Origin: Pristiophorus japonicus
Taxonomy: Eukaryota
NCBI RefSeq assembly: GCF_044704955.1
Contig: NC_091979.1
Span: 317,254,001-317,318,000, forward strand
Length of the DNA: 64,000 nt
Direction of reading: 5' to 3'
Shown here: positions 1,491 through 56,460 of the stretch, piece by piece
Layout of the letters: every line of letters starts with the position of its first letter
Position numbering within the stretch: position 1 is the stretch's first letter
Notes under the pieces: model-generated
Seen by the model: the letters and a program-made list of their open reading frames with translations, nothing else
Database searches by the model: none
What the model was told of the DNA's origin: nothing
Translations under genes and position numbers: made by a program

Positions 1491-3303
1491 GGAGCCCACT
1501 AGCTCCCCTGTTGTGCCTTTCCTCTTTCCCAGGTCAGAATCTCTTCAACCACGACCCCCAGCACCTGCTCCAGCCACAATGCAGCACCCCTTTAAGAGGT
1601 GCCGGTTGGCGCAGCACCAAGTTGGCGTGCTGCCTGCATTTCAATCAACGGGCGTGGGTTAATCACGCTTCATGATCTCTGATCCCGTCTTCAGGGCGAT
1701 CCAGTTTAGCCCCTCAGGTGACTGTGTATCATCTCCAATACCTTAAGTTCAGTTTCCAGCATTGCACGGACCTGAGAAAACCTCCACAGAAAGGCTGATT
1801 CTGGTGCTGTTTCAAGGAGGTGATTTTCCATTCGGTGTAAATATGGTGTGAGGCATCTGCACCTCTCCCAATGTTAGGTTCTTCCACTGTCCAATTCCAC
1901 GGAACTTTCCCAACCATTCCTCCCTAACCTTTCTCTAATAGCATTATGGCTACAGTTAGCAGTGTAAGGGTCATGTGTCACTCCACAATCAACAGCTGTT
2001 CAGTTTACTGCCTGTGTTAAAGGCTGGTCTGAATGTTCCTTACAGAGCTGGTACAGTTCACCATCACAAAGTATGGACTATGAGTGACACTTACTGTCAG
2101 CATTAGCGCAGATCAATGACACAAATAAAATCGTAACTACAGTTTATTTTTATTGGTTATTTTAACACTCAGTCTCTGATATTACAGCAAATTAACATTT
2201 CTGCTGGGAAAAGCTATCTCTGCAACTATAAAGCTTTATTATTTTTTAACCATTTTAATCTATTACTTTATCATTTATCCATAAGTCACGCGGTAGAAAT
2301 TAACCGCTTCCATTGAAGAGGCTGGAAATCAGGGAGCTGTGGGCGGCTCATTTCCCGGAGAGAGAGAACATAATCTTTATTCAGGCGTGATACCGACCAT
2401 CCCGGACAAAGCGGGGAAATCGGTGGGGACTGTACTCACAAATACTGAAGCAAAAGGCTGCTTCGAATAAAAATATTAACAGTATATATTAAATAAGGTA
2501 AGTCGGATGAGTATGCTGCCAAACTTGTTCATTGATCAGAGAGCATCACAGCATCTTTCAAACACTGGGGTAGAGTCTCTGCTAATTTGTGATAGTTTTA
2601 TCAGCACAATCCAGTGAAAACTGCTCAACCAGCGCAAAAGATCACGGGAACTCGAGCATGATTTACATCAAGTGTAAATCAAGTATTCCGTCATCTTTAA
2701 CGCTGGTTTAAAAATCTACAAAACTGGCCCGGCCCACAGATAGAAATAACGAGGATGGCGAGTTTCCACCGATTGCGCCCGTTCGAGGAAGGTTTTCAAA
2801 TTAAACTAATTGTCTTAGGCACCAGGCACTAGTCGGCATGATTTAAAAGTTTTACATATTAAACATACTTTATTGACTTACAAACTGACTAGTGTATAAC
2901 AATAAAACTAATAAATGGCTCAGTATAGTTTTCTTTTCAGACATTTCAGTTATCTTAAATCAGGTTTCCCACAGGTGAAAGGCTGGGCACTTCTATTAAA
3001 AATGCTTATTTTTTGTCATAATCAAACTCCAAGGCCTTTTCAAAGCATTCAATAGCTTCGCACTTCTCCCCATCCAGCTGGTGTAGTAACCCAGGAACAC
3101 CAAAGGCCTTGCTGTCTCTGGGATTCCTGTCAATTTGTTTTGATACAATCTTTCTCAAATTTTCGTGACACAATTGCCAACCTTTTGTGCCTTGTTCAAT
3201 TGTAAATCCTTCCAGAAAATGGATGATAGCATTTGATTCAGATTCTTTCTAGTGCAGTTCAAAAAACCCAATCTGCAAAGACACTGCCTGCTGTTTATCA
3301 GGA

Positions 3304-4398
3304 CATAATAACATAAGAACATAAGAAATAGGAGCAGGAGTAGGCCACCTGGCCCCATGAACCTGCTCCGCCATTTAATATTAAGGCTGATCTGATAATG
3401 GACTCAGCTCCACATCCCTGACCACTCCCCATAACTCCTTGTTCCCTTATCGCTCAAAAATCTGTCTATCTCCACCTTAAATATATTCAATGACCCAGCC
3501 TCCACAGTGCTCTGGGGCAGAGAATTCCATAGATTTACAACCCTCTGAGAGAAGAAATTCCTCCTCAACTCAGTTTTAAATGGGTGGCCCCTTATTGTGA
3601 GACTATGTGCCCTAGTTTTAGTTTCCCCTATGAGTGGAAATATCCTCGCTGCATCCACCTTGTCAAGCCCCCTAATTATCTTATATGTTTCGATAAGATA
3701 CCTCTCATTCTTCTGAACTCCAATGAGTATTGGCCCAACTTACTCAACCTACCTCCATAAGTCAACCCCCTCAACTGCGGAATCAACCAAATGAACCTTC
3801 TCTGAACAGCCTCCAATGCAAGTATATCCTTCCTTAAATATGGAAGCCAAAATTGTACGCAGTACTCGATAGGTTGGCCTCACCAATATCCTGTACAGTT
3901 GTAGCAGGACTTTGCTGCTTTTATACTCTATCCCCCTTGCAATAAAGGCCAACATTCCATTTGCCTTCCTGATTACTTGCATACTAACTTTTTGTGTTTC
4001 ATGCACAAGGACCCCCAGTTCCCTCTGTACAGCAGCACTTTGCAATTTTTTTTCATTTAAATTATAATTTGCTTTTCTATTTTTTCTGCCAAAGTGGATA
4101 ACCTCACATTTTCCCACATTATACTATATCTGCCAAATGTTTGCCTGTCTATATCGCTTTGCAGATTTTTTGTGTCCTCACTATTTGCTTTCCTGGCCAT
4201 CTTTGTATCATCAGCAAACTTGGCTACATTACACTCGGTCCCTTCATCCAAGTCGTTAATATAGATTGTAAATACTTGAGGCCGCAGCAACGATCCCTGC
4301 GGCACCCCACTCGTTATTGTTTGCCAACCAGAAAATTACCCATTTATCCCAACTCTCTGTTTTTGTTCGTCAGCCAATCCTCTATCCATGCCAACATG
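3304..4398 (-). mobile_element. CR1 LINE, 3' part of ORF2 (RT) and 3' tail
   Basis: PQGSLL...YINDLD...KFADDTK and RRNFFSQRVVNLWNSLP motifs; ACATAAGA-type tail repeats at 3304-3328. Confidence 0.92.
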
Positions 4399-5807
4399 CT
4401 AGTTGGATCCAAAATTGGTTCAGAGGTAAGAAGCAGAGGGTAATGGTTGATGGATGTTTTTGTGACTGGAAGGATGTTTCCAGTGGAGTCCGCAGGGCTC
4501 AGTACTGGGTCCCTTGCTTTTTGTGGTATACATCAATGATCTAGATTTGATTATAGGGAGTATGATTAAGAAGTTTGCAGATGACACTAAAATTGGCTGT
4601 GTGGTCGTTAATGAAGCAGAAAGTCATGGGCTGCAGGAGGATATCAATCTACTGGTCAGGTGAGCAGAGCAGTGGCAAATGGAATTTAATTTGGAGAAGT
4701 GTGAGGTAATGCACTTTGAGAGGGCTAATAAGGAAAGGATATACACATTAAGCGGTAGACCATGGAAAAGATGAATAAAGGGATCTTGGAGTGCTTGTCC
4801 ACAGATCCCTGAAAGTAAGGTGGATAAGGTGGTGAAGAAGGCATACGGAATGGTTGCCTTTCTTGGCTGAGGCACATAATACAAGAGCAGGGAGGTTATG
4901 CTTAAAATGTATAATACTTTGGTTAGGCCACAGCTGGAGTACTGCGTGCAGTTCTGGTCACCGTATTATAGGAAGGACGTGATTGCAATAGAGAGGGTGC
5001 AGAGGAGATTTGCTAGGATGCTGCCTGGAATGGAGAAACTTAGCTATGCGGATAGATTGGATAGGCTGGGTTTGTTCTCATTGGAACAGAGGAGGTTGAG
5101 AGGAGACCTCATTGAGGTGTACAAACTTTTGAGGGGCCTGGATATAGTGGATAGCAAGGGCCTATTTCCCTTGGTGGTGGGTTCAATTATGAGGGGGCAT
5201 AGTTTTAAGGTGGTTGGTGGAAGGTTCAGAGGGGATTTGAGGGGTGGCTTTTTCAAGCAGAGGGTTGTGGGGGTCTGGAACTTAGTGCCTGGAAGGGTGG
5301 TGGATGTAGAAACCCTCAACGCATTTAAAAGGTGCTTGGATGTGCACTTAAAGTGCCGCAATCTGCAGGGTTACACGGACCTAAAGCTGGTAAGTGGAAT
5401 TAGACTGGATAACCTGTTGGCAGGCACAGCTATGATGGTAAGTACTGCAGGGAATCGAATATATCCAGGGTGATCTCCTGGACGAGTTTCGATTACTTGG
5501 ATGGGTTGGAGAGGAATGTTCCGAGATATTTTTTCCCCAATTGACCTGGGTTTTTATCTGTTTTTTGCCTTTCCCAGGAGATCACATGGCTCCGGTTGGG
5601 GAGGAGTGTAGAATGTTTCGGTGCAAGGGGTGTCGCATTTGTGTGGGGCTGACTGGTTGGGCTGGGTGCTCTTTACCTTTCTGCCATTGTTCATTGATCA
5701 TACGTTTATATGTAACTTTCAGGGCTGCTGACTGAGGGCCGTATGTTTCTTTGTCGGCCGGTGTGGACACGATGGGCCGAAATGGCCTCCTTCTGCGTTG
5801 TAGATTT
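4399..5807 (+). mobile_element. CR1 LINE (different subfamily), 3' part of ORF2 and 3' UTR
   Basis: WIQNWF...QRV, KFADDTK, LVRPQLEYCVQFWSP, RRLRGDLIEVYK; 3' UTR ends ...gggccgaaatggcctccttctgcg. Confidence 0.92.
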
Positions 5808-7100
5808 GCAATTGTGCAAAAATAAATGATGGCTTCTGCTCAAATGCCTTTTCAAAATAGTACTTGCATTGATTGATCAACTCAGCTTTCTGTTGAAAAG
5901 CAGGATTGCGAGGGGCTTTGCTGCCTGGATTTTTGTTCAGTTCAAATAGTTTTTTTCTGTAACACTGACCTATTTGGTGGTGTATGAAGGTAGAGTTTGG
6001 GGTAATTTCTAATGCTTTCTTCAACAGCTCCACAGCTTTTTCCACATCTCCTCTTCTGTAAAATTTTGCTGCATAACGAGTTACATATGGAAGATCAGGG
6101 GACTTCTGCAATGCTTGTTCAACTAATTCGTGTTCTTCCACCTTTTGATTGAACTCTTGTAGTTTTAGAGCCAACAGCACCATGGCTACAGAGTCATCTG
6201 GATCAAGTCCCCACACGTCGCAACTGCTTCACTGATTGGCTGCGGTCACCACTCTCTGGGGTACGAGAAAACGTGTCCACACGAAACAGAACAGTCGCAT
6301 AGCCAACGTTCCATTCAGTGTCATCAGGATCATCCTCCAGAGTCTTCTCAAAACATTCCTTTGCCTCTTCATAGTATTGAGCAGCAGAATTCAACAGTGA
6401 CCAACCCTTCTCCCCGTATACTTCTGGTCTCAGTGCTGTATACCGAGTAAATTGTTTACAGATCATCTCCAGCTTGTCGAGGTAGGACTGGGCCTCTGTC
6501 AGTTGGCCCATGTGATAATATACCCAGGCATAGTTTCCATAGGTGATGATGCTTCTTCTTTCAAATTCATGTTCATGATTCTCCCTCAGAATCTTTTCAG
6601 CTTCCTTTAAGTTTTGAATTGCCCCTTTGAATTGCCTTGCAGACAGTTTACAAATGCGAGGTGGTTGTCAGACCTGGCCTGATAATTCACACCAGCCTGT
6701 ATTAAATCTTGTAATCTATACTTCATGTCGTCCAAGTCAATGCTGTCTCTCTGTGGGCCCCACGTGAAGTGACATTGAAGCTGGCTGAGTTTTGCTTTCA
6801 AGCAATCATTCAGTGTGTTGCTGTAGGAGAACAAAATAATCAAAGCCCATCTTATGTGTATCTAACTTACATTTTTAGCTCATATATAATCAACATAGCA
6901 ATGCTGGTAAAGTCAGAATAGCAGAACAGATGAGCAGCTCAGTGCACATGGGCCCGGAACACTTCCCTACAGCCTCACTGCCTGGCATCCCTCAGTTCGG
7001 GGGAAACCCATTGGAATCCTGTAATGGTCCCGGAGGCAATAACAAATGAACAATTGGCTCATGAGTGTCAGCAGAAATCCACGGTCATCCTTAATATGAT

Positions 7101-7465: not shown

Positions 7466-7479
7466 ACTGGGGAAAGCAG

Positions 7480-7945
7480 GCTCGGGGAATGGGAGACTGG
7501 GGAATGGGGGCTCGGGGATAGAGAGACTGGGGAATGTGGGCTCGGGGAGAGGGAGACTGGGGAATGGGGGCTCGGGGAGAGGGTGACTGGGAAATGGGGA
7601 CTCGGGGAGAGGGAAACTGGGGAATGGGGGCTCGGGGAGAGGGAGACTGGGGAATGGGGGCTCGGGGAGAGGGAGACTGGGGAATGGGAGCTCGGGGAGA
7701 GGGAGACTGGGGAATGGGGGCTTGGGGAAAGGGAGACTGAGGAATGGGGGCTCGGGGAGAGGGAGACTGGGGAATGGGGGCTCGGGGAGAGGGAGTCTGG
7801 GGAATGGGGGCTCGGGGAGAGGGAGACTGGGGAATGGGGGCTCGGGGAGACTGGGGAATGGGGCCTCAGAGAGATGGAGACTGGGGAATGGGGGCTCGGG
7901 GAGAGGGGGAATGGGGGCTCGGGGAGAGGGAGACTGGGGAATGGG
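7480..7945 (+). repeat. G-rich 30-bp minisatellite (GGGGAGAGGGAGACTGGGGAATGGGGGCTC), array 1
   Basis: Tandem units read directly; four G-tracts per unit. Confidence 0.95.
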
Positions 7946-8097
7946 TCAGGGGGGATCATGGTGAGGCCAGGCGGGAGGTAGAAGAGGCCAGGTTGAGTGT
8001 AATTTATTCTGTGGTGGCCTGGAGGAGCTGGACTGATCCCTGGGCTCCAGACAAGGTCACTGGGCCTCTCCAGCCCTGGCCTTCTCTCACACACCAC

Positions 8098-8240
8098 AGC
8101 AACTCCCTTCAGCCCCCTCCCAGCAGATCCTTTCAGTCCCCTCCCTGCAGATCCCTTCAGCCCCCTCCCAGCAGATCCCTTCAGCCCCCTCCCAGCAGAT
8201 CCCTTCAGTCCCCTCGCAGCAGATCCCTTGAACCCCTCAG
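8098..8240. repeat. 24-bp tandem repeat (CAGCAGATCCCTTCAGCCCCCTCC), about 5-6 copies
   Basis: Direct reading. Confidence 0.85.
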
Positions 8241-8356
8241 GAGATCGAGCTGCCGGGGGTGGGCAGAGCTTTCGGGGGGTTGGGAGTCGGGAAGTTGGGT
8301 TTGGAGGGTGGTGGGAGAACTCGGGACCGGGAGAGGCGGGGATTATCTTTAACCTA

Positions 8357-8552
8357 CCCGGCAACTGATGATGCAGCTCGCAGTATTTGTCTGATTGGAT
8401 AGTTCAATGTTTGGAAAGTTTATTTCGGCACCAACACAAACTCTCCCCGTGTCTTTTCTACCCGGAGCTTGCTGACTCACAGCCTGTTTTTATTGTAATT
8501 GGAGACAAATATACCCTCGAACCAATCAGTTCGGAGGAGTCTGAGTGTAAAA
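8357..8552 (+). promoter_or_regulatory. Putative MHC promoter: two X1/X2-Y modules, CCAAT box and TATA-like element
   Basis: CCCGGCAACTGATG (8357-8370), 20 nt, then CTGATTGG (8391-8398). Second module CCCGGAGCTTGCTGACTCA (8461-8479) with ATTGG at 8498; both have 37 nt from CCCGG to ATTGG. CCAATCAG at 8522-8529, TGTAAAA at 8546-8552. Confidence 0.72.
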
Positions 8553-8586
8553 CACTCTGCACTGGGCAAAGCGCACGAACAGATAG

Positions 8587-11500
8587 CACAGAGAGACAGT
8601 CCCAGAGACACAGTATCAGCACAGGGCACAGAGAGACAGTCCCAGAGACACAGTATCAGCACAGGGCACCGAGACAGTCCCAGAGACACAGTATCAGCAC
8701 AGGGCACAGAGAGACAGTCCCAGAGACACAGTATCAGCACAGGGCACAGAGAGACAGTCCCAGAGACACAGTATCAGCATAGGGCACAGCGAGCCAGTCC
8801 CAGAGACACAGTATCAGCACAGGGCACAGAGAGACAGTCCCAGAGACACAGTATCAGCACAGGGCACAGAGACAGTCCCAGAGACACAGTATCAGCACAG
8901 GGCACAGAGAGACAGTCCCAGAGACACAGTATCAGCACAGGGCACAGAGAGACAGTCCCAGAGACACAGTATCAGCACAGGGCACAGAGAGACAGTCCCA
9001 GAGACACAGTATCAGCACAGGGCACAGAGAGACAGTCCCAGAGACACAGTATCAGCACAGGGCACAGAGAGACAGTCCCAGAGACACAGTATCAGCACAG
9101 GGCACCGAGAGACAGTCCCGGAGACACAGTATCAGCACAGGGCAGAGAGAGACAGTCCCAGAGACACAGTATCAGCACAGGGCACAGAGAGACAGTCCCA
9201 GAGACACAGTATCAGCACAGGGCACCGAGAGACAGTCCCGGAGACACAGTATCAGCACAGGGCACAGAGAGACAGTCCCAGAGAGAGAGTATCAGCACAG
9301 GGCACAGAGACAGTCCCAGAGACACAATATCAGCACAGGGCACAGAGAGACAGTCCCAGAGACACAGTATCAGCACAGGGCACAGAGAGACAGTCCCAGA
9401 GACACAGTATCAGCACAGGGCACAGAGACAGTCCCAGAGACACAGTATCAGCACAGGGCACAGAGAGACAGTCCCAGAGACACAGTATCAGCACAGGGCA
9501 CAGAGAGACAGTCCCAGAGACACAGTATCAGCACAGGGCACAGAGAGACAGTCCCAGAGACACAGTATCAGCACAGGGCACAGAGAGACAGTCCCAGAGA
9601 CACAGTATCAGCACAGGGCACAGAGAGACAGTCCCAGAGACACAGTATCAGCACAGGGCACCGAGAGACAGTCCCGGAGACACAGTATCAGCACAGGGCA
9701 CAGAGAGACAGTCCCAGAGAGAGAGTATCAGCACAGGGCACAGAGACAGTCCCAGAGACACAATATCAGCACAGGGCACAGAGAGACAGTCCCAGAGACA
9801 CAGTATCAGCACAGGGCACAGAGAGACAGTCCCAGAGACACAGTATCAGCACAGGGCACAGAGAGACAGTCCCAGAGACACAGTATCAGCACAGAGCACA
9901 GAGAAACAGTCCCAGAGACACAGTATCAGCACAGGGCACAGAGTGACAGTCCCAGAGACACAGTATCAGCACAGGGCACAGAGACAGTCCCAGGGACATA
10001 GTATCAGCACAGGGCACAGAGAGACAGTCCCGGAGACACAGTTTCAGCACAGGCACAGAGAGTCAGTCCCAGAGACACAGTATCAGCATAGGGCACAGAG
10101 AGACAGTCCCGGAGACACAGTATCAGCATAGGGCACAGAGAGACAGTCCCGGAGACACAGTACCAGCACAGGGCACAGAGACAGTCCCAGAGACACAGTA
10201 TCGACACAGGGCACAGAGAGACAATCCCAGAGACACAGTATCAGCACAGGGCATAGAGACAGTCCCAGAGACACAGTATCAGCACAGGGCACAGAGACAG
10301 TCCCAGAGACACAGTATCAGCACAGGGCACAGAGAGACAGTCCCAGAGACACAGTATCAGCACAGGGCACAGAGAGACAGTCCCAGAGACACAGTATCAG
10401 CACAGGGCACAGAGAGACAGTCCCAGAGACACAGTATCAGCACAGGGCACCGAGAGACAGTCCCGGAGACACAGTATCAGCACAGGGCACAGAGAGACAG
10501 TCCCAGAGACAGAGTATCAGCACAGGGCACAGAGAGACAGTCCCAGAGACAGAGTATCAGCACAGGGCACAGAGACAGTCCCAGAGACACAATATCAGCA
10601 CAGGGCACAGAGAGACAGTCCCAGAGACACAGTATCAGCAAAGGGCACAGAGAGACAGTCCCAGAGACACAGTATCAGCACAGGGCACAGAGAGACAGTC
10701 CCAGAGACACAGTATCAGCATAGGGCACAGAGAGACAGTCCCAGAGACACAGTATCAGCACAGGGCACAGAGAGACAGTCCCGGAGACACAGTATCAGCA
10801 CAGGCACAGAGAGTCAGTCCCAGAGACACAGTATCAGCATAGGGCACAGAGAGACAGTCCCGGAGACACAGTATCAGCATAGGGCACAGAGAGACAGTCC
10901 CAGAGACACAATATCAGCACAGGGCACAGAGAGACAATCCCAGAGACACAGTATCAGCACAGGGCACAGAGAGACAGTCCCAGAGACACAGTATCAGCAC
11001 AGAGCACAGAGAGACAGTCCCAGAGACACAGTATCAGCACAGGGCACAGAGAGACAGTCCCAGAGACACAGTATCAGCACAGGGCACAGAGACAGTCCCA
11101 GGGACATAGTATCAGCACAGGGCACAGAGAGACAGTCCCGGAGACACAGTATCAGCACAGGCACAGAGATTCAGTCCCAGAGACACAGTATCAGCATAGG
11201 GCACAGAGACAGTCCCAGAGACACAGTATCGACACAGGGCACAGAGAGACAATCCCAGAGACACAGTATCAGCACAGGGCATAGAGACAGTCCCAGAGAC
11301 ACAGTATCAGCACAGGGCACAGAGAGACAGTCCCAGAGACAGAGTATCAGCACAGGGCACAGAGACAGTCCCAGAGACACAGTATCAGCACAGGGCACAG
11401 AGAGACAGTCCCAGAGACACAGTATCAGCACAGGGCACAGAGAGACAGTCCCAGAGACACAGTATCAGCACAGGGCACAGAGAGACAGTCCCAGAGACAC

Positions 11501-13019
11501 AGTATCAGCACAGGGCACAGAGAGACAGTCCCAGAGACACAGTATCAGCACAGGGCACAGAGAGACAGTCCCGGAGACACAGTATCAGCACAGGCACAGA
11601 GAGTCAGTCCCAGAGACACAGTATCAGCATAGGGCACAGAGAGACAGTCCCGGAGACACAGTATCAGCATAGGGCACAGAGAGACAGTCCCAGAGACACA
11701 GTATCAGCACAGGGCACAGAGAGACAATCCCGGAGACACAGTATCAGCACAGGGCATAGAGACAGTCCCAGAGACACAGTATCAGCACAGGGCACAGAGA
11801 CAGTCCCAGAGACACAGTATCAGCACAGGGCACAGAGAGACAGTCCAAGAGACACAGTATCAGCACAGGGACAGAGATTCAGTCCCAGAGACACAGTATC
11901 AGCACTGGGCACAGAGAGACAGTCCCAGAGACACAGTATCAGCACAGGGCACAGAGAGACAGTCCCAGAGACACAGTATCAGCACAGGGCACAGAGAGAC
12001 AGTCCCAGAGACACAGTATCAGCACAGGGCACAGAGAGACAGTCCCAGAGAAACTGTATCAGCACAGGGCACAGAGACAGTCCCAGAGACACAATATCAG
12101 CACAGGGCACAGAGAGACAATCCCAGAGACACAGTATCAGCACAGGGCACAGAGATACAGTCCCAGAGACACAGTATCAGCACAGAGCACAGAGAGACAG
12201 TCCCAGAGACACAGTATCAGCACAGGGCACAGAGAGACAGTCCCAGAGACACAGTATCAGCACAGGGCACAGAGACAGTCCCAGAGACACAGTATCAGCA
12301 CAGGGCACAGAGAGACAGTCCCAGAGACACAGTATCAGCACAGGGCACAGAGACAGTCCCAGAGACACAGTATCAGCACAGGGCACAGAGACAGTCCCAG
12401 AGACACAGTATCAGCACAGAGCACAGAGAGACAGTCCCAGAGACACAGTATCAGCACAGAGCACAGAGAGACAGTCCCAGAGACATAGTATCAGCACAGG
12501 GCACAGAGAGACAGTCCCGGAGACACAGTATCAGCACAGGCACAGAGATTCAGTCCCAGAGACACAGTATCAGCATAGGGCACAGAGAGACAGTCCCGGA
12601 GACACAGTATCAGCACAGGGCACAGAGAGACAGTCCCGGAGACACAGTACCAGCACAGGGCACAGAGACAGTCCCAGAGACACAGTATCGACACAGGGCA
12701 CAGAGAGACAGTCCCAGAGACACAGTATCAGCACAGGGCATAGAGACAGTCCCAGAGACACAGTATCAGCACAGGGCACAGAGACAGTCCCAGAGACACA
12801 GTATCAGCACAGGGCACAGAGAGACAGTCCAAGAGACACAGTATCAGCACAGGGCACAGAGAGACAGTCCCAGAGACACAGTATCAGCACTGGGCACAGA
12901 GAGACAGTCCCAGAGACACAGTATCAGCACTGGGCACAGAGAGACAGTCCCAGAGACACAGTATCAGCACAGGGCACAGAGAGACAGTCCCAGAGACACA
13001 GTATCGGCACTGGGCACAG
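8587..13019. repeat. 4.4-kb minisatellite, 40-bp unit (38-bp variants) CACAGAGAGACAGTCCCAGAGACACAGTATCAGCACAGGG, roughly 110 copies
   Basis: Direct reading; recurring variant blocks indicate higher-order duplication. Confidence 0.97.
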
Positions 13020-13115
13020 GAATCACACGGTCTGAATTGGGCGCAGCTCACGGACGGTCTCTCGGAAAAGGATTGCCTGCAAACTGCTCATCCCAGCCTG
13101 TCGAGGGAAGTAACA

Positions 13116-14183
13116 ATGTTTGGACTGACCGTGCTGGCCCTTCTGTGTGGAGAGGTGTGTGCAGGCTCTCACTCCCTGCGGTACATGCACACGGCTATCA
13201 CTCCGCTCCCGGGCATTGCTGAGTTCACCGATGTGGGTTATGTGGATGACCAGCAGTTTATTTACTATGACAGTGTGAGCCGGCAGTACACCCCGCGGCA
13301 GCGGTGGATCAGGGAGAGCGAGGGCGCCGAGTACTGGGAGCGCTACACACAGAACCTGCGGGGCAAGGAGCAGGTGATGAAAGGCAACATTCAGACCGTC
13401 TTAACCCGCACCAACCAGACCGGCGGGATCCACACGCTGCAGAGGTTGTGCGGCTGTGAGCTGCGGGATGACGGCACCACCAGCGGCTTCTGGCAGTACG
13501 GCTGGGACGGGAAGGACCTGATCAGCTTCGACAAGGATCGCCTGGTGTGGGTCACCCCGGTACCGTGGGGAGAGATCACCAAGAACAAGTGGGACCAGGA
13601 CAGGGCCGAAATGCAGCAGGACAAAAGTTACCTGGAGCAGGAGTGCATCGAGTGGCTGAAGAAATACCTGAAGGCTGGAGAGAGAGAACTGGGAGCTGTT
13701 GCTCCTCAAGTGTTTCCTTCTGTGGACAAGGCGTCAAATATTAAAGCCCCCCAACTCTCCTGTCTCCTCACAGGATTTTACCCTCGCGAAATCCAAGTGA
13801 CCCTCCTGAGAAATGGCGAGCCAATCAGGGACACGGAATCCACGGGCATCCTGCCCAACCACGATGGCACCTACCAGCTCACGACATGGGCTCAGATCGA
13901 GCCCGCGGATGGAGCCACCTATTCCTGTCAGTATGAGCAGAGCGGCCAAGCAGGAGGGAAGACCCGAGACTGGGACGGGACGTTCCGAGTGACTCCAGGA
14001 TCGCCAGAGGGAACAAATAGGGGTTTGATTGTTGGAATTGTGATTGCTGCCGTCGCCCTGATTGCTCTTGTGATCGGTGCGGTTGTGTGGAAGAGGAGAG
14101 GAGGAGAGGAGACATCTGGTTACAGCCCAGCGAACCCTGCTGAACGAGGAGAATTATCCCCAAACTCAGCAGCCCAGTCCTGA
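13116..14183 (+). CDS. MHC class I heavy (alpha) chain, 355 aa, with no coding introns
   Basis: One uninterrupted ORF with A at -3: leader, GSHSLRY alpha1 with EYW and RTNQT glycosylation site, alpha2 CGC...WDGKD...TKNKW...YLEQECIEWLKKY, alpha3 LSCLLTGFYP...PNHDGTYQ...YSC, TM LIVGIVIAAVALIALVIGAVVW, KRR stop-transfer and SGYSPA tail. Confidence 0.97.
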   Translation: MFGLTVLALLCGEVCAGSHSLRYMHTAITPLPGIAEFTDVGYVDDQQFIYYDSVSRQYTPRQRWIRESEGAEYWERYTQNLRGKEQVMKGNIQTVLTRTNQTGGIHTLQRLCGCELRDDGTTSGFWQYGWDGKDLISFDKDRLVWVTPVPWGEITKNKWDQDRAEMQQDKSYLEQECIEWLKKYLKAGERELGAVAPQVFPSVDKASNIKAPQLSCLLTGFYPREIQVTLLRNGEPIRDTESTGILPNHDGTYQLTTWAQIEPADGATYSCQYEQSGQAGGKTRDWDGTFRVTPGSPEGTNRGLIVGIVIAAVALIALVIGAVVWKRRGGEETSGYSPANPAERGELSPNSAAQS

Positions 14184-14424
14184 GGCTGATCCCGAAGTGA
14201 AGTTCACTGGGACTAGAATCTGGACTTGCTGTGTCGCAAGGAGGGTTCATTCAGAAGCAATCCACGATTCTGCATCTTCATTTCGTTTGATTGTCACTGG
14301 CTGCTGCCAGTGTTAATAGTAATCGGTAATGTATCTATCATTGAGTGGGTTTGGGGATATTTTCTTTTTGGTGATTGGATAGAAATCTCCAGTTGGGTCT
14401 TTTGGTGTTTAATGTAAATGAGAT

Positions 14425-14495
14425 GTGTCGATTTCGGCACGGGCTGGATGGCCAAATGGTCGTCTTCCGTGCTGTAACCATTCTATGATTCTATG
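14425..14495 (+). mobile_element. Short CR1/SINE 3' tail fragment
   Basis: ...ggccaaatggtc...gctgtaacc followed by (ATTCTATG)2, the typical CR1 terminal octamer repeat. Confidence 0.65.
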
Positions 14496-14505
14496 TATGG
14501 TGGCC

Positions 14506-15170
14506 GGGGGAGAGGGAGACTGGGAATGGGGGCTGGGGGAGAGAGGGAGACTGGGAATGGGGTCTTGGGGAGACGGAGACTGGGAATGGGGGCTGGGGGA
14601 GAGAGGGAGACTGGGAATGGGGTCTTGGGGAGAGAGAGACTGGGGAATGGGGGCTCAGGGAGAGGGAGACTGGGGAATGGGGGCTTGGGGAGAGAGAGAC
14701 TGGGTAATGGGGGCTCAGGGAGAGGGAGACTTGGGAATGGGGCCTCGGGGAGAGAGAGACTGGGGAATGGGGGCTTGGGGAGCGGGAGACTGGGGAATGG
14801 GGGCTTGGGGAGACGGAGACTTGGGAATGGGGCCTCGGGGAGAGAGAGACTGGGGAATGGGGGCTCGGGGCTCGGGAGACTGGGGAATGGGGGCTTGGGG
14901 AGAGGGAGACTGGGGAATGGGGGCTTGGGGAGAGAGGGAGACTGGGGAATGGGGGCTCTGGGAGAAGGAGACTGGGGAATGGGGGCTTGGGGAGAGAGGG
15001 AGACTGGGGAATGGGGGCTCTGGGAGAGGGAGACTGGGGAATGGGGGCTTGGGGAGAGAGGGAGACTGGGGAATGGGGGCTCTGGGAGAGGGAGACTGGG
15101 GAATGGGGGCTCGGGGAGAGAGAGACTGGGGAATGGGTGCTCGGGGAGAGGGAGACTGGGGAATGGGGTG
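14506..15170 (+). repeat. G-rich 30-bp minisatellite, array 2 (same orientation as array 1)
   Basis: Same unit as 7480-7945. Confidence 0.95.
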
Positions 15171-15501
15171 GGTGTGGGTTCTAGTATTTCCCCCAGAGCC
15201 GGGAGCAGCAGCAACGTGGTGAGTGGGAGTGACACTGAGAGAGGAGCAGCCAGTAAAGAGGTGAGTGAAACCTGGGGACCTTACTGTGGGTAAATAGTGA
15301 AAGATTATTTCCAGTGGTGGGCGAATGGGGAACTAGGGAACGGAAACCAAAGATTCTAAAACCTAAAGGGAATGTGATAAATATTTGAAAAGGAAGAATG
15401 TTATAAGATCTGGGGGTGGGGTGGGCGGGGGGGAATGGGATTACAGAAGAGAGTGCGAGCTCCGAGGCCGAATGATCTCCTCCTGTGCAGTCATTTCTAT
15501 A
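15171..15501 (+). repeat. Unique-sequence block duplicated in inverted orientation at about 32211-32630
   Basis: Reverse complement matches 32211-32630, apart from about 100 extra bp in that copy. Confidence 0.9.
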
Positions 15502-23943: not shown

Positions 23944-24722
23944 CTACAAGAGTTCAATCAAAAGGTGGAAGAACACAAATTAGTTGAACAAGCATTGCAG
24001 AAGTCCCCTGATCTTCCATATGTAACTCGTTACGCAGCAAAATTTTACAGAAGAGAAGATGTGGAAAAAGCTGTGGAGCTGTTGAAGAAAGCATTAGAAA
24101 TTAGCCCAAACTCTACCTTCATACACCACCAAATAGGTCTGTGTCACAGAAAAAAACTACGTCAACTGATCAAATATCCAGGCAGCAAAGACCCTCGCAA
24201 TCCTGCTTTTCAACAGAAAGCTGAGTTGATCAAACTATGCAAGTACTAGTTTGAAAAGGCATTTGAGCCCCGCCCATTAACATCTATTGCAGCACAACTG
24301 GATTTTGCAAGAATCTGTATACTTGATGAAGAATATCCTGAAGCAGTGAAGATCACAGCAATCTAATGAAATTAGAATATATTCATCCAGAAAATAAGCA
24401 GAAAATATGTTTACTGGCTGGGTTATTTCAACTGAACCAGAAAAGATCGGAACCAGATGCCATCAGCCATTTTCTGGAAGGTGTCAAAGTTAAATATGAC
24501 TCAATACTACGGAAAAAAGTGTTGCAAACATTTGAAGAAGATAGCAGAAAGACGACTTTGCATAAATTCAAAAGACAGCAAGGCCTTTGGTGTTCTTGGG
24601 TTACTGCACCAGCTGGATGGGGAGAAGTGTGAAGCTATTGAGTGCTTTGAAAAGGCCTTGGAGTTTGATTGTGACAATGAAGAATATCTAAGTGTTCTCT
24701 CTGAATTACGCCTTTCTATATC
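23944..24722 (+). pseudogene. IFIT: IFIT pseudogene 2, 5' half missing
   Basis: Starts at LQEFNQK directly after the CR1. TAG at 24247-24249, frameshifts near 24355 and 24515, terminal stop altered. Colinear with about 55678-56460. Confidence 0.93.
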
Positions 24723-26600
24723 GGCAACGCTGATTTTCCCAGCTAAAACTAAACACATTTCTGAAGGATGCATTAATAGTCTCTGATCTATGAGAAGGTT
24801 TGTTCGGGTACTCACTTCACATGTTATATTCTGCTGGCACTTGCTTTCGAATGAACATTTTACTTGTGTGTATAATTTTCAAACGATGATCTTATTGTAA
24901 TTATTTTAAATTCCTGTGCTTCATTCAAGAATATTGACACCACTGGAGCACTACCCAAATAGGATGTGTTTCCATATCCTTAGACCTTTTGCTATGTGTG
25001 GAATTAAACAAATCAATGTAGGTTTGGGGGAATTAGAGTTAATTGGGCCAATTGGACAGAGCCACAATAGTTGTTTATGAATTGGAGGAACTGTTTTTAA
25101 AACAAAAATACACATTACATGGGCCTGATTTTAACTCCAGACGGGTTTTGGGTGGGTGAGTGGTGAGGGGAATGGGAAACTCACCTGTTGCTGCAGATAT
25201 CGGGCCCGGGGTATTTTAAATCCCCAACTTCATTATCGTGCGGCCAGTCCACTTCCCTCCCGTACGGCGTGCAGGTCGGTGCGTTGAAGGAGTTTCGGGG
25301 AGGGTCTCGGGGAAAGGACTGATGAGGGGGAAAATGTAGTTGTGCCTCGTTCGGGAGCAGGAACACTCGCGAGGTGTGAGACTTTGCACCAGGCGCACAA
25401 GTCTTGCCTCTCGTGAGAAATTGGGTTTACCACCACAAAAGGAAGTGGGGCACAAAATAACGCACTCCACTTCCTTTCTGGGGCGGTAGTGAGGTGAACG
25501 GATTGGGAGCAGGGCACAGCACTACACACTGGGCCACTTACTGCTTCCACGTAGGAGGGACTCTTCCCTTAATGAAAGGGAAGCGACCAAGCTTCAAACT
25601 CTGCAGGAATGACAGGGTCCTACCTGGACCAGTGAGGAGTGGGGGTGCTGTGTCCAAAGCAGAGTGCCGCACTGAATGATCGGGGCATGGACCGTATTCA
25701 AAGCACCAATGGGGTTCAGGATAAAATCGCCATCATTTTTTCTTTAATGACCCACACTTCCCCGGTACATGTCCCCTGAAGCTGTCGATGGCATTGCTTG
25801 GCACAGCTTCAGGGGCTGATACCTAATTTACAGTCCGGGGCACTAACGGGACACAGCGGAGAGGGGCACTACAGGTTATTGCCACCACTAAACGCTCGCG
25901 GAAATTAGTGGGACTAGTTCGTGGAGCCGCGCACAGGCTAAAAGTCATTTGCACCCCAATGGGGCACTAACGGGAGGCGCTAATGCCCCAAATTACCAGG
26001 CCATATTCTTTTTATGGTAATGATGGTGTAAAAAAAATCTTCAATCCAGCCCATAGAGGGTGCAATAAAACCACTCTGTCGACCTATCTTTCACTTGCTG
26101 CCTCTTCACAATAAAGTCCCCCATCGGGTGAAAGGCTTTCCATGTGTACCAGCTGAGAGAGGACCAACGACCACTGCAGGCCCTTCAAATAAATCATCAG
26201 CTTGATTCTGTTGCTCTGAAGCTTTGCTGACAGACGATTGGGCTCCCATCCAGAGCGTTCATTCAGATCTCAGCCTCTGTCACTGGGAGTCTCCCTGCCC
26301 TGTAACTGGTCAGCTGCACCTGCTCTTCATCAAACCTTCTGTGTCCCTCGTTGGCCAACACAGAGCAGCTTGGACAATACCCGGGAAAGTCCCTTTTCCA
26401 GAGACTGTCACTATCACGATGAAGGGAAACGCAGTGGAGGGAGGAAAGTTAAAGGATATAGAAATAGGTTCAAATGGGTTAAAAAGCAATAAAACGCAAT
26501 GGCTGCAGACACTGATTGTCCAAACAGAGAATGTAATATGAGAGAGTGAATATTAAATAACCAATAAAATAAAACTGTGGCAAAGATTTAATTTCTGTTG
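24723..26600 (+). repeat. Duplicated IFIT 3' flank (24723-25260 and 26005-26600 match 56461-57030 and 57637-58240); includes a MITE-like insert at about 25121-26002
   Basis: Long near-identical stretches. The insert is bounded by imperfect TIRs GGGCCTGATTT...AATTACCAGGCC. Confidence 0.8.
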
Positions 26601-31610: not shown

Positions 31611-32627
31611 TTGCAGAGGGGAAACCAGAAGTCAAAGGAATTTTTTCCACCAGTAACTAATGGTAACACACTGAAATTGTACTGATGACTAACAGTAATA
31701 CTGGTAACACTCAGATTCCCGTCACAACCAACAGTAATACAATAACTCATTGATAGGCTATATGTTACAAGCAGTAATAGGTGTAAAGTCTCTCTATCCT
31801 ACGTGTAACTAGCAGTAATACTTTAACCCACTGATAATCACCCTAAAACCATACCCAGAATCCCCCTGCACTGCACCAGGTGAGGTCAGGTTCCCCAGTT
31901 GAAGCCACATTTAACAGGCCCCATCTCTCTCTCTCTATCTCCTCGGAATCTGGTTTGGTCTCCGGTTCCATGTGAAGGTGACAATTCTGAACTGGGAACC
32001 TCAGTCTGAGCTGATCTGTACTTGGACTTCACACGTCAAACCCGGCCGGCACAGACCCACCTGAACCAAACCGAGAGATTGCACAAAGGCCAGTGAGCTC
32101 AGTGTTTGGGGCACTTCTCACAGGGCACATTGTCCTAAACTCAGCTCAGCACCAACATTTCTAAACCGCTCCATGTGCTCGGTCTCAATAAAGGAGGGTT
32201 TTCATAGAATTATAGAAATGACTGCACAGGAGGAGACCATTCGGTCTCGGAGCTCGCACTCTCTTCTGTAATCCCATTCCCCCCAGGTCTTTTCATATTC
32301 TTCCTTTTCAAATATTTATCACATTTCCTTTAGGTTTTAGACGCTAGCTCAATAGCTACATGTGGTGAAGGATCCCACGGTCTAATAGCCCACAGTTCAA
32401 TGACCTTCCTCCTCCGTTCTCCCTTGTTTCTTCCAGTGAGAATCCTTGGTTTCTGTTCCCTAGTTCCCCATTCGCCCACCACTGGAAATAATCTTTCACT
32501 ATTTACTCACAGTAAGGTCCCCAGGTTTCACTCACCCCTTTACTGGCTGCTCCTCTCTCAGTGTCACTCCCACTCACCACGTTGCTGCTGCTCCCGGCTC
32601 TGTGGGAAATACTGGACCCTGCACCCA

Positions 32628-33362
32628 CCCCATTCCCCAGTCTCCCTCTCCCCGAGCACCCATTCCCCAGTCTCTCTCTCCCCGAGCCCCCATTCCCCAG
32701 TCTCCCTCTCCCTGAGCCCCCATTCCCCAGTCTCCCTCTCCCCGAGCCCCCATTCCCCAGTCTCTCTCTCCCCGAGCCCCCATTCCCCAGACTCCCTCTC
32801 CCCGAGCCCCCATTCCCCAGTCTCCCTCTCCCCTAACCCCCATTCCCCAGTCTCCCTCTCCCCGAGCCCCCTTTCCCCAGTCTCCCTCTCCCCGAGCCCC
32901 CATTCCCCATTCCCCAGTCTCCCTCTCCCCTAACCCCCATTCCCCAGTCTCCCTCTCCCCAAGCCTCCATTCCCCAGTCTCCCTCTCCCCGAGCCCCCAT
33001 TCCCCAGTCTCCCTCTCCCCAAGCCCCCATTCCCCCTCTCCCTGAGCACCCATTCCCCAGTCTCCCTCTCCCCGAGCCTCCATTCCCCAGTCTCCCTCTC
33101 CCCGAGCCCCCATTCCCCAGTTTCCCTCTCCCCGAGCCCCCATTCCCCCTCTCCCCGAGCCCCCATTCCCCAGTCTCCCTCTCCCCGAGCCCCCATTCCC
33201 CAGTCTCCCTCTCCCCGAGCCCCCATTCCCCAGTCTCCCTCTCCCCGAGCCCCCATTCCCCAGTCTCCCTCTCCCCGAGCCCCCATTCCCCAGTCTCCCT
33301 CTCCCCGAGCCCCCATTCCCCAGTCTCCCTCTCCCCGAGCCCCCATTCCCCAGTCTCCCTCT
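32628..33362 (-). repeat. G-rich 30-bp minisatellite, array 3 (inverted)
   Basis: Reverse complement of the unit in arrays 1 and 2. Confidence 0.95.
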
Positions 33363-52640: not shown

Positions 52641-55007
52641 GTAACGGTCATTGGAATTCCTCCTTTATTTAAATTTACGTGTAGACTATTGAACAAGGAA
52701 CTAGTTTTCAGAAATAAAGTAGCTTACATTACAAAGCAGTTGAAATGCAGAGAGCTGGGATTAGTGGTTCACAGTGAGACACACAGATAAGGGAACACTG
52801 CTGCACCAAGACTGGTGATAGTCAGTAAACATGAGGCAAAAGGCAGACCTGTTCATAGGATTATATTCAGTAATAATTCAAATTACAATTAAAATTGGTT
52901 TCTGTTCAGAATTCATAGAAAGTACAAAGTTAATCTTGAATATTATACTGTGGTGGAAAGGCGCATTCTGTAAGTGCCCTTAGGTCATATCCAGAGTTTG
53001 AAGAAAGAAAGTTTCACTTTGTGTTCCATGGGAATCTAGAAGGGACCTACTAATGTAAAATAGTGATTTCCAGCACTTTCATATATCCAAACTAAAGCAA
53101 CCTGAACTATAAAGCAAAGGGAGAGTACAGCATGGACTGGGATGGGGGAATGGACACAGCATGAAATGCAGGAGGAGAGTGCCAGCTTAAAGTGTGTAGG
53201 AGAAGGAAAAGTGCTGACTTACATTGAGAATGGGGGCGGGGGAGAAGAGTGCTGACATGAACTGGGGGAAAGGACAGGTGCAGCAGTTTGAACGGAGCAG
53301 CAAAGGGAGGAAAGCCACCATGAACTGGGGCAGGGGTAAGAATGACAGCTTGGATTGTGGGGGGAGGGAGACGAGAGCCAACAGGAACAAGAGGCCGGCG
53401 GAGTAGAGTGCAAGGAGAAGCTGGGATGGCTGGGGGATGAAGTGTATCGACGTGAGTTTAACAGCAAGGAAGAAAGAATTTGTGTTGATGTAACACCTTA
53501 TCACACCTCTCAGAAATGTCCCAAAGTGCTTCACATTCAGTGAATTATTTTGCAGTGCAGTCAGTTGTTTTGTCGGGCAATGTGACAGCTCAGTTTGCAC
53601 AACAACAACTGGCATTTATATAGCGCCTTTAAACATCCCAAGGCTCTTCACAGTAAATTAATCAGACAACAATGGACACCGAGGCAAAGGTGGAGATATT
53701 TAGAAGGCTGACAAAAAGCTTATTCAAAGAGATAGGTTTTATGGAGAGTCTTAAAGTGGGATAGTGAGGTGGCAAAGTTTAGCTGAAGCCACGGCCAACA
53801 TTGGTGTGTTAGGTGGAGGATGGACACGAGCCCAAGTTGGAGGAATGCAGAATTCGCGGAGGATCTGTTATTGGTGGTTTTGCTTGAGGGAAGAATATTG
53901 GAAAATACATCTCCTTGCTTTTCTTCAAATAGTGCCATTGAATCTTTAAGGTCCACCTGAACCACTTGAACAGGCAGATACTGCCTTGGCTTAAAATCTC
54001 ACCTGTATGGTGAAAGATTTTCAGCAGGATAAGAGTCAGTTCATGAAACATGGTCTTTCAGAATCCTTTGTGTTGGACCTTCTTTTTTGCTTTAAGGGTA
54101 GGATTACAGAGGATTACATAGGATACACAGCACAGAAACAGGCCATTCAGCCCAACCATGCTGGTTTATGCTCCACTCGAGCTTCCTCTTGTCTTTCCTC
54201 AGCTAATTCTATCTGCATAACCCTCTAATCCCTTCTCCCTCATTTGCTTACCGGGTCTCCCCTTAAATGCATCTATAGTATTTCCTTCAACCAGTCCCTA
54301 TGGTCGCGAGTTCCACATTCTCACCGCTCTCTGGGTAAAGAAGCTTCTTTTGAATTCCCTATTTGATTTCTTGGTGTCTATCTTATACTGATGGCCTCTA
54401 GTTTTGCTCTTTCACAAAAGAGGAAATATTCTCTCTGTAAGCACTCTTATCAAAACCTTTCAGAATTTTAAAGAACTTCAATTGAATATTGGAGTTGGAA
54501 TGATCTGGCTCACAGACAGCAGGGTCCATGAGGGTTCCTGTTCAGTGGAGAGTTACCTGGACTGCCAATGTGAGACGGAGAGCATTTTAGAATTAGCTCT
54601 GATCTTTTTAGTGAGGAGCTCCCATTTCAGAATGGAATACATGAATGAGAAGGAGATGTAATGGGTGAACCAACAGGCAGCCTCAGAACTTCAATCAATG
54701 TTCCTGTTCATATCATTGGGAGTGGAAGTGTTTGAGGTGATGCTGCACATTGGGTGAGAAGACTAAATGTCCAGGAGCTGGTACATCAGCCAGCATGAAG
54801 GAGACCAGTGTAAGTACAGCTGAGATTTGCAGTCATACCGTTGCCTTTTGCAATGGTTTTAGCAGAGGTCACCTTTGTGTGACCAGAGATTTCATGGTCA
54901 GTGGGTCCAGGAGTCGGGAGAAGGCTTTAGTTAAAGAAACCGGAGAGAGGGGAGGGGGTGACACAGCCAGTCTGAGATGGGTTTTGATGAATTTTGTTCT
55001 CTTGCAG

Positions 55008-56460
55008 CAACACACAGAAAGATTTGTTGAAAGTGAAGCTCGATCAGCTTCAATGTCACTTCACATGGGGCCCACAGAAAGAAAACATTGACTTGGACAA
55101 CATGAAGTATAGATTGCAAGATTCAATACAGGCTGGTGTGGAATATCAGGCCAGGTCTTACAACCACCTCGCTTTTGTAAACTGTCTGCAAGGCAACTGT
55201 GAAGAGGCAATTCAAAACTTAAAGGAAGCTGAAAAGATTCTGGGGGAGAACCATGAACATGAATTTGAAAGAAGAAGCATCATCACCTATGGAAACTATG
55301 CCTGGGTATATTATCACATGGGCCAACTGACAGAGGCCCAGTCCCACCTCGACAAGCTGGAGATGATCTGTAAACAATTTACTGATGGCTCTCGGTATAC
55401 AGCACTGATACCTGAAGTATACGGGGAGAAGGGTTGGTCACTGTTGAGTTCTGCTGCTCAATACTATGAAGAGGCAAAGGAATGTTTTGAGAAGGCTCTG
55501 GAGGAAGATCCTGATGACACTGAATGGAACGTTGGCTATGCGACTGTTCTGTTCCGTCTGGAAGGGTTTTCTGGTACCCCAGAGAGTGGTGACCGCAGCC
55601 AATCAGTGAAGCAGTTGCGACGTGTGCTGGAACTTGATCCAGATGACTCTGTAGCCATGGTGATGTTGGCTCTAAAACTACAAGAGTTCAATCAAAAGGA
55701 GGAAGCACTGAAATTAGTTGAACAAGCATTGCAGAAGTCCCCTGATCTTCCATATGTAACTCGTTATGCAGCAAAATTTTACAGAATTAATGGAGATGTG
55801 GAAAAAGCTGTGGAGCTGTTGAAGAAAGCTTTAGAAATTAGCCCAAACTCTACCTTCTTACACCACCAAATAGGTCTGTGTTACAGAAAAAAACTATATC
55901 GACTGATCAACAATCCAGGCAGTAAAGACCCTCGCAATCCTGCTTTTCAACAGAAAGCTGACTTAATCAATAAATGCAAGTACCATTTTGAAAAGGCATT
56001 TGAGCCCCGCCCTTTAACATCTATTAAGCCACAGCTGGATTTTGCAGGAATCTGTTCATTAAATGAAGAATTTTTCAAAGCAGATGCGATCTACAGCAAT
56101 CTACTGAAATTAGAAAATATTCGCCAAGAAAATAAGCAGCAAATATGTTTAGCGGTCGGATTATTTGAACTGCACCAGAAAAGATCTGAATCAAATGCCG
56201 TCACCCATTTTCTGGAAGGAGTGAAAGTCAAATATGACTCAATAGAACGGAGAAGGTGTCACGAAAACTTGGAGAAGATAGCAGAAACACAACTTTGCAT
56301 AAATTCAAGAGACAGCAAAGCCCTTGGTGTTCTTGGGTTACTGCACCAGCTGGATGGGAAGAATTGTAAAGCTATTGAATGCTTTGAAAAGGCCCTGGAG
56401 TTTGATTGTCACAATGAAGAATATCTAAGTGCTCTCGCTGAATTACGCCTTTCTATCTAG
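55008..56460 (+). CDS. IFIT: Interferon-induced protein with tetratricopeptide repeats (IFIT5/IFIT1-like), main exon; 485 aa with exon 1
   Basis: Acceptor ttttgttctcttgcag|; CHFTW, GNYAWVYYHM, EKGW, PYVTRYAAKFYR and HHQIG motifs; open to TAG. Confidence 0.96.

Follow-up and report, generated by a model that had tools for sequence, protein, structure and literature searches.

An intact, intron-free MHC class I copy amid IFIT genes of a sawshark, apparently with a predicted promoter of its own

Analysis of a 64,000-nucleotide stretch of the sawshark Pristiophorus japonicus (hereafter the window, with positions counted from its first letter) identified an intact, intron-free MHC class I copy, which is situated amid IFIT genes and apparently has a promoter of its own, as predicted from the sequence. 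The ORF at 13116-14183 on the plus strand runs from leader to stop in a single frame of 355 codons (355 aa), which bears out the preliminary description of an intact class I gene without coding introns in one contiguous ORF. Its parts are the following:

13116..14183, + strand: MHC class I ORF (by ORF, Pfam, structure match, junction check and AlphaFold)
13116-13163, + strand: leader of the class I ORF
13164-13424, + strand: alpha1 of the class I ORF
13425-13697, + strand: alpha2 of the class I ORF
13698-13976, + strand: alpha3 of the class I ORF
13977-14180, + strand: connecting piece, transmembrane region (TM, about 14022-14090) and tail

Pfam assigned residues 17-192 to MHC_I and residues 199-275 to C1-set, the best solved relative of the protein was nurse shark class I 6lup_A (E 4.6e-94), and the AlphaFold model, calculated on a 74-sequence alignment, reached a pLDDT of 93.9 and a TM-score of 0.92 against 6lup_A. 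The features of a class I heavy chain are present, i.e., platform, C1-set alpha3, TM, tail, two disulfide pairs and the N86 glycan site, and the retention of 67 of 68 conserved columns is consistent with beta2-microglobulin binding and arrival at the cell surface. Further class I pieces were not found in the window by tblastn with eight class I proteins.

The window ORF runs without a break through all six expected coding junctions, whose positions were estimated by alignment, and no splice-site remnants were found within 15 nt of any of the six. Isoforms of related sequences in the same clade (see below) are interrupted at domain borders: exactly alpha2 is missing from P0073, P0012 ends or diverges after alpha3, and P0008 does so after the TM; parental intron positions were deduced from these isoforms and the domain borders, not from parental DNA. 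Since the relatives have introns and the junctions of the window ORF are seamless, the ORF is best regarded as a processed copy, and the junctions leave little doubt about its predicted origin from RNA. The one-exon-per-domain layout of the UAA-2-type lineage is absent from the window ORF, and the exon-skipping isoforms, i.e., introns, of its clade relatives dispose of the proposal that it might belong to a lineage already described as single-exon. UFA was considered as a possible single-exon shark lineage and rejected, as the passages and sequences drawn on present it as CD1-like and unlike the window ORF. In the supplement of Verissimo 2023 (PMC10751288), as far as drawn on here, 35 rows for elasmobranch class I genes each cover at least 3.66 kb (22 of the 45 'MHC-Ib' places lie outside this span comparison), and two genes from catshark, listed as 'MHC-Ia like', extend over 47 and 69 kb. 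The literature searched, most subscription papers being outside its scope, yielded no shark class I gene that lacks introns. The lack of introns is weakened as a novelty in itself, since intact processed class I ORFs are known from salmonids and platypus.

The protein search covered sequences of 195-622 aa, and statements on class I hits refer to the best 120 of 578. Within these, the nearest protein is P. japonicus P0001, 99.7% identical over 378 residues, which differs from the window ORF by one residue (I for N at position 66) and shares its leader, so that we infer a second copy of the class I gene; P0001 stands for a cluster of six sequences, of which P0001 alone was compared with the window ORF. 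Sawshark P0004 (74%), Squalus Q8HWH7 (72%) and Heptranchias P0007 (68%) follow, and no sawshark class I cluster lies between 74% and the P0001 cluster among the best 120 of 578 hits. A phylogeny against the shark class I lineages, as proposed in the preliminary description, was calculated from 37 of 84 aligned sequences, with P0074 (alpha3-TM-tail) or P0121 (mature protein) dropped for gaps. It places the window ORF inside a shark UAA-2-type clade with SH-aLRT/UFBoot values of 100/100 on alpha3-TM-tail (15 of 36 sequences) and 100/98 on the mature protein (14 of 36). Alpha3 identity to the window ORF is 60-84% for clade members and 36-52% for other chondrichthyan class I sequences. Within the clade, the window ORF, P0004 and Squalus Q8HWH7 separate almost as a trichotomy (87.9/91), their branches being of equal length (0.119, 0.110 and 0.106, respectively), and a sister pairing with P0004 found no support (8.9/46 and 57.7/75). 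The alpha1 and alpha2 trees gave no reliable placement of the window ORF.

The name of the clade derives from a match by eye of its alpha3 to Gcirratum_UAA-2 via P0015, the labelled sequence itself being outside the tree; the label presumably corresponds to the 'MHC-Ia-like' genes of Verissimo 2023. The window ORF would thus belong to the UAA-2-type (class Ia-like) shark lineage, with the name taken from this by-eye match, and the earlier suggestion that it may fall into an already named chondrichthyan lineage holds for the informal 'UAA-2'. UBA-like (P0060, P0068) and UDA-like (P0127, P0130) sequences, labelled by eye, are outside the clade, and UCA, UFA and UGA, compared by eye only, showed no grouping with the window ORF. 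The 'MHC-Ia like' genes of PMC10751288, Squalus Q8HWH7 and P0004 share the alpha3/TM/tail type of the window ORF at 72-74% identity, and the 5' leader of Heterodontus models is homologous to that in the window; in contrast, UAA-2 genes span, in the source tables, tens of kb, whereas the window copy is free of coding introns, lies among IFIT genes and has rare groove residues.

Further observations concern the lineage as such. Squalus class I antigen Q8HWH7 and sawshark P0004 bear the UAA-2-type alpha3, and squalomorph sharks may, to judge from these sequences, use the UAA-2 type as their main class I gene, unlike nurse shark. Heptranchias P0007, P0008 and P0028 have two different alpha3 types and cluster together in the alpha1 (P0007, P0028) and alpha2 trees, which suggests that UAA-type and UAA-2-type genes of one species have swapped groove exons. 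The predicted class I proteins P0002, P0003 and P0005 (Pristis, Hypanus) contain two tandem alpha1-alpha3 units and are probably fused models of adjacent genes.

For the groove, residues were numbered by eye against HLA-A2 in the supplement of Verissimo 2023. The residues named in the preliminary description (Y7, Y59, R84, T143, K146, W147, Y159, Y171, L123 and N86) are each found as claimed, as is the tail tyrosine motif, there given as YxxA. Eight of the nine anchors for the peptide termini are kept, the exception being L123, and the same 8/9 pattern occurs in Squalus Q8HWH7 and in the UDA-like P0127 and P0130; classical anchor residues are accordingly present as described, but are not diagnostic of a classical gene, given that the UDA-like proteins share them. 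Other positions are rare in the chondrichthyan comparison, namely Y63 (0/76), D156 (0/77), D24 and K70 (1/76 each), M74 (2/76), W114 (3/76) and E152 (3/77), which suggests an altered ligand preference. Behind shark UAA, MR1 is among the top sequence and fold matches, and Y63 and R97 are common to it and the sawshark ORF; in contrast, identity to MR1 is 38-39%, and the ORF nests within shark class I genes. The Schiff-base lysine of MR1 is K43, and the aligned position in the sawshark ORF is a tyrosine. An MR1-like function was rejected, since the equivalent of K43 is absent, and we take the resemblance as probable convergence.

The neighborhood of the class I copy contains one intact and two broken IFIT genes within 64 kb, in addition to LINEs and integrase-bearing elements:

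55005..56460, + strand: main exon of an intact IFIT5-like gene, 100% identical to P. japonicus P0157, first exon included
53672-53761, + strand: annotated first exon of the IFIT5-like gene
3015..6828, - strand: broken IFIT copy, frameshifted and interrupted by LINE DNA, in head-to-head orientation to the class I cassette
23944..24741, + strand: 3' part of another broken IFIT copy

The class I ORF had been described as intact among decayed neighbours, which applies to the two broken IFIT copies but not to the IFIT gene with the exon at 55005-56460. An NCBIfam scan of the IFIT protein returned generic TPR hits only. IFIT genes have a two-exon layout; the annotated first exon of P0157 differs from that of its paralogues, which have a short Met-Ser start, and may be a product of prediction. 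Sawshark IFIT genes are strongly expanded, with clusters of 13, 19 and 6 near-identical proteins among the best 120 of 366 hits (P0157, P0161).

In 16 out of 16 other elasmobranch species with both on contigs >10 Mb, IFIT and class I are located on different contigs (three of 19 species were uninformative; longest contig per cluster; best 120 of 578 class I and 366 IFIT hits). From this synteny in other species, a position of the class I copy outside the MHC is very likely, and a location different from that of the parent, as expected of a retrocopy, is given by synteny in other species only. Verissimo 2023 (PMC10751288) states that elasmobranchs have no class I or class II genes beyond the MHC and takes this as evidence for the ancestral state; the sawshark copy probably breaks this published all-in-MHC rule; 'ifit' is absent from the gene lists of its supplement, two of the three elasmobranch sheets being without gene names. 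'MHC-Ia-like' genes are placed there, as unpublished data, beside class Ia among zinc-finger genes, and the neighbours of the window copy within 64 kb are IFIT genes and mobile elements. No TAP or PSMB genes were seen by eye among the long ORFs of these 64 kb, the published class Ia region being given as 87 kb-1.9 Mb, and synteny argues against linkage to TAP1/2 and PSMB8/9.

Several other elements were observed in the window. An intact 412-aa retrovirus-type integrase ORF at 61960-63198 (+) has rve, zinc-binding and MLV-type C-terminal domains (Pfam), and a shorter integrase-like ORF without Pfam hit lies at 16339-16770 (+), 2 kb past the class I gene. Two Gypsy-type LTR retrotransposons, recognised by their ORFs, at 34314-38998 (-) and 47378-51913 (+), have broken pol frames and near-identical terminal repeats (95% and 94%, respectively). 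A self-complementary stretch of ~210 nt (85%) at 59198-59410 may be a small transposon with inverted repeats, 28755-31602 is occupied by a tandem duplication of 1.3 kb (91% identical) with a 23-bp minisatellite at its end, and a 25-bp GC-rich array fills 3-875.

On the 5' side of the class I ORF, the following features were found:

13019..13115, + strand: 5' leader, homologous to the sequence immediately preceding the start codon of Heterodontus class I models
8586..13019, + strand: 40-bp minisatellite, 112 copies, between promoter module and ATG
8473..8551, + strand: predicted class-I-type promoter module, ~4.6 kb from the ATG
8473-8479, + strand: X2/site-alpha-like TGACTCA
8498-8502, + strand: ATTGG (Y box)
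8522-8526, + strand: CCAAT, 19 nt beyond ATTGG
8546-8551, + strand: TATA-like
8394..8426, + strand: second ATTGG (8394) and imperfect ISRE-like stretch (8417-8426), weak
8550..8582, + strand: stretch fitting the first 11 residues of the P0012 5' extension, on the far side of the minisatellite
6901..6912, + strand: putative upstream exon end (Met-Leu codons, then a GT donor), in an intron of the opposite-strand broken IFIT copy

Against pieces of P0012 and P0010, the leader gave codon-compatible matches of 51/60 (next 41), 33/39 (28) and 42/51 (35), each at the top of ~128,000 positions, and the AG at 13045-13046 fits the 5' end of the P0001 model. At the position of the minisatellite, Heterodontus P0012 and P0073 have a tandem repeat with an 18-aa unit. 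The stretch at 8550-8582 matches P0012 at 26/33, tied best with three other positions among ~128,000, and is suggestive only. The absence of upstream ATGs from 8540-13115 was rejected as a sign of selection, as the array lacks 15 of the 64 trinucleotides and is therefore uninformative.

The gap from X2 to Y in the module is 19-20 nt. The module pattern, which was written post hoc using HLA spacing, has one match in the window and none in 100 shuffles, looser patterns match somewhere in 19% and 40% of 200 shuffled windows, and by our own estimate the chance of such a module in the ~640 nt directly upstream of the array on the plus strand is 0.1-0.3%. The ISRE-like stretch at 8417-8426 is non-consensus and was missed by the ISRE scan. 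In the passages available, the X box is 20-22 bp from Y in mouse (Ludigs 2015), and site alpha/X2, enhancer B/Y and ISRE are documented in fish and human class I promoters. Inheritance of the promoter from the parent is likely by these sequence matches. There is no canonical donor in 7946-8600 by which the array could be spliced out, and the 4.4-kb array would sit in the 5' UTR of a module-driven transcript, which counts against use of this promoter.

The upstream exon candidate is one of three such sites, and it alone has a donor-like sequence. Residues 1 and 2 of P0001 fit an exon ending at 6906 and spliced to 13047, by which the module would be bypassed. As proof of transcription this exon of P0001 was rejected, since the IFIT model nearby also has an unusual first exon, and such exons may therefore be predictions. 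Two further observations may be added here. An exact 10-bp repeat links 8422-8431 in the ISRE-like stretch with 14431-14440 at the junction of 3' UTR and LINE tail (chance ~3%, rough). A perfect tandem ISRE/IRF-type site at 33611-33628 (-) lies ~250 nt upstream of a 30-bp minisatellite at 32628-33362, and this site, together with a unique stretch with two donor-like sites, may represent an interferon-induced promoter and first exon; the idea that the 30-bp arrays serve as IFIT promoter and exon 1 is unproven, as no exact IFIT-type first exon was found.

The 3' side and the flanks of the cassette are composed as follows:

14184..14435, + strand: presumed 3' UTR remnant, putatively parental, without poly(A) signal
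14436..14495, + strand: CR1-type LINE 3' tail, ~60 nt, sense, ending in two 8-bp repeats and adjoining the downstream minisatellite
7466..7945, + strand: 30-bp minisatellite, upstream flank of the cassette
14507..15168, + strand: 30-bp minisatellite, downstream flank of the cassette, in family and orientation like that at 7466-7945

The statements that a poly(A) tail and a nearby AATAAA are lacking proved correct: no run of at least five A occurs in 14184-15400, and the first AATAAA is at 17034, 2.85 kb past the stop. Donor-like sites near 15219 and 15261 precede it, and with the distant AATAAA beyond them the RNA could be unstable. The LINE tail starts ~250 nt after the class I stop and ends at the cassette edge. 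We take this tail, with its terminal octamer, to be of CR1 type, which is supported by similar tails behind LINE ORFs in the window. Nine LINE-tail-like sites are present in the window, five of them on the plus strand, compared with 0-2 in each shuffle, and a sense tail at most 320 nt from the stop would arise by chance with a probability of about 0.02 (post hoc). According to the passages drawn on, reverse transcription by many LINEs depends on the element's own 3' end, and sharks possess a LINE-SINE pair, HER1/HE1; if CR1 machinery used a CR1 tail here, the lack of poly(A) would be explained. The downstream array and the unique DNA after it are repeated in reverse at 32439-33362, matching 14497-15357 (+), with the unique part about 95% identical. 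The paired 30-bp arrays look as if split by an insertion, and independent arrays are also possible. A target-site duplication, said to be missing, is indeed absent directly at the ORF, but around the larger cassette there are two weak candidates, one of 6 bp (7958/14497) and one of 8 bp (8012/14498), with a roughly estimated chance of 3-5% each.

Among 68 columns conserved to at least 90% in 78 chondrichthyan sequences, one is changed in the window ORF, one in P0004 and two in Squalus. Neutral simulations with the same number of private changes, run 400 times per setting under assumed rates and with the window as stand-in ancestor, changed on average 6.9-7.8 of the 68 (P at most 0.018), and the ORF stayed intact in a fraction of 0.09-0.10 of them without indels and 0.005-0.01 with indels. 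The proposal that ORF intactness points to selection or recent origin is thereby supported in that the conserved columns are spared, but this constraint may belong to the parent rather than to the copy; judged from these columns, the result shows constraint on the lineage, not necessarily after retroposition. An intron-bearing member in the P0001 cluster would mean that the copy is young and the constraint the parent's. The tail has four private changes in its last nine residues, at positions 69-88% conserved, and its serine-rich end is eroded.

We see about an even chance that the copy is a retrogene of the UAA-2-type (class Ia-like) lineage retained as a nonclassical class I gene. A spliced transcript begun upstream of the parent's proximal promoter would have been reverse-transcribed by CR1 LINE machinery, which would have used the CR1 tail ~250 nt after the stop, either embedded in the RNA or joined by template switch. 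The 2-kb product would have inserted into the IFIT cluster, probably into the 30-bp minisatellite, the leader repeat would later have expanded to 4.4 kb, and the region would have been duplicated at least once. The inherited X2-Y-CCAAT module, or the upstream exon, is predicted to drive low or inducible expression of a beta2m-bound heavy chain, whose groove would close round peptide and accept a narrow and unusual ligand set. That the gene is, in full, an old functional peptide-binding retrogene, moved by CR1 with its SXY promoter, kept and amplified in the IFIT cluster and re-tooled in its groove, is a tentative reading that we consider less likely than not. The competing view of a young processed pseudogene, i.e., a recent copy of a close intron-bearing parent passively multiplied with the IFIT array, is possible but rather unlikely. 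It would fit the P0001 cluster of six, compared via P0001 alone, the sawshark IFIT clusters of 13 and 19 members, which imply that the region duplicates readily, the lack of a near poly(A) signal, the 4.4-kb array in the leader, the undepleted CpG of the class I ORF (observed/expected 0.57-0.76 from alpha1 to tail vs 0.46 for the window) and the intronless 359-aa class I ORF of platypus, classed as a pseudogene in the passage describing it. However, P0001 differs by one residue and shares the leader, no sawshark class I cluster between 74% and 90% is among the best 120 of 578 hits, and alpha3 is 16% away from P0004, compared with about 0.01-0.02 substitutions per site among three Triakis sequences.

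The retained promoter would be explained without an upstream-initiated transcript by a two-step origin, in which DNA carrying the promoter moved, e.g., by 30-bp minisatellite recombination, and introns were lost via the gene's own cDNA before or after the move; direct 30-bp arrays on both cassette flanks and the weakness of the target-site duplication candidates agree with this, yet it requires two rare events and the loss of all coding introns and leaves the CR1 tail exactly at the 3' edge unexplained, so that we consider it improbable. Loss of introns in place at the MHC, at first favoured for the promoter, was given up as a single-step origin once the IFIT synteny was known. A working classical class Ia gene, polymorphic, highly expressed and TAP-supplied, would agree with the 8/9 anchors in the pattern of Squalus Q8HWH7, with the SXY-like module, which in the passages drawn on is absent from salmon L-lineage genes, and with the wallaby classical class I genes reported there outside the MHC; this is very improbable, given that P0004 with 9/9 anchors is the better candidate, UDA-like proteins also show the 8/9 pattern, Y63, D156, D24 and K70 are rare, the one other copy examined differs by one residue, and no TAP or PSMB was seen by eye among the window's long ORFs. 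An assembly misjoin at the flanking minisatellite, by which MHC-derived or cDNA-like sequence was put into the IFIT cluster, might be thought of because same-family arrays bound the cassette on both sides and a 4.4-kb array lies inside it; such an artefact is likewise very improbable, as the window is without N, there is a second protein copy that is not identical, the cassette includes promoter-like DNA and a LINE tail, which are unexpected for plain cDNA, and a misjoin alters the location only, while the absence of introns stays.

The salmonid L-lineage of class I, reportedly first described by Dijkstra in 2007, offers a partial parallel to the retrogene reading. In the passages of PMC6797598 drawn on, L-lineage genes are likewise processed, intact and multi-copy, and are expressed, infection-inducible and spread over several chromosomes; in contrast to the window gene, which has no coding intron, an SXY-like module and 8/9 anchors, they keep a post-leader intron (two exons), have no SXY modules and form a highly divergent lineage. 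A platypus class I sequence, 99% identical to OranPS1-2 (PMC2375005), is likewise intronless and outside the MHC, with an uninterrupted 359-aa ORF, but is annotated as a processed pseudogene on a BAC that is otherwise gene-free, and no promoter or immune neighbours are reported in the passage on it. Retrocopies that inherit a promoter, about 3% of expressed mammalian retrocopies as excerpted from Carelli et al. 2016 (PMC4772013), arise from upstream-initiated transcripts that carry the downstream promoter into the copy; these are mammalian and L1-made, whereas the window copy ends in a CR1 tail without poly(A). Outside mammals, CR1 or Tx1 elements are reported, in the passages used, to sustain retrocopying, the ORF is kept in 15.7% of cartilaginous-fish retrocopies, and the retrocopy tables of bioRxiv 10.64898/2026.06.26.734816 may include this locus. 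Excerpts of PMC12562908, PMC7853315, PMC12863176, PMC3179965, PMC3747384, PMC4374748, PMC6523485, PMC3987962, PMC1971071 and bioRxiv 10.64898/2026.03.23.713620 were also drawn on.

What is new in the sawshark copy is its animal group, its probable departure from the all-in-MHC rule, the promoter module that it retains, and its CR1 end and IFIT surroundings. If it is a young pseudogene, it would be an ordinary retrocopy with the platypus as precedent. If the reading as an old functional retrogene is true, it would be the first case of a class I gene beyond the MHC in cartilaginous fish, and an antiviral one without ties to the TAP/PSMB8 haplotype. The locus looks like an exception to the elasmobranch all-in-MHC rule and suggests CR1-driven retroposition carrying a promoter as an exit route for class I from the MHC. 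It would serve as a natural experiment on whether class I, with most anchors kept, can persist without linkage to TAP/PSMB8, under the regulation of an interferon-induced cluster, and without the intron that, in the passages drawn on, permits alpha1/alpha2 shuffling in fish.
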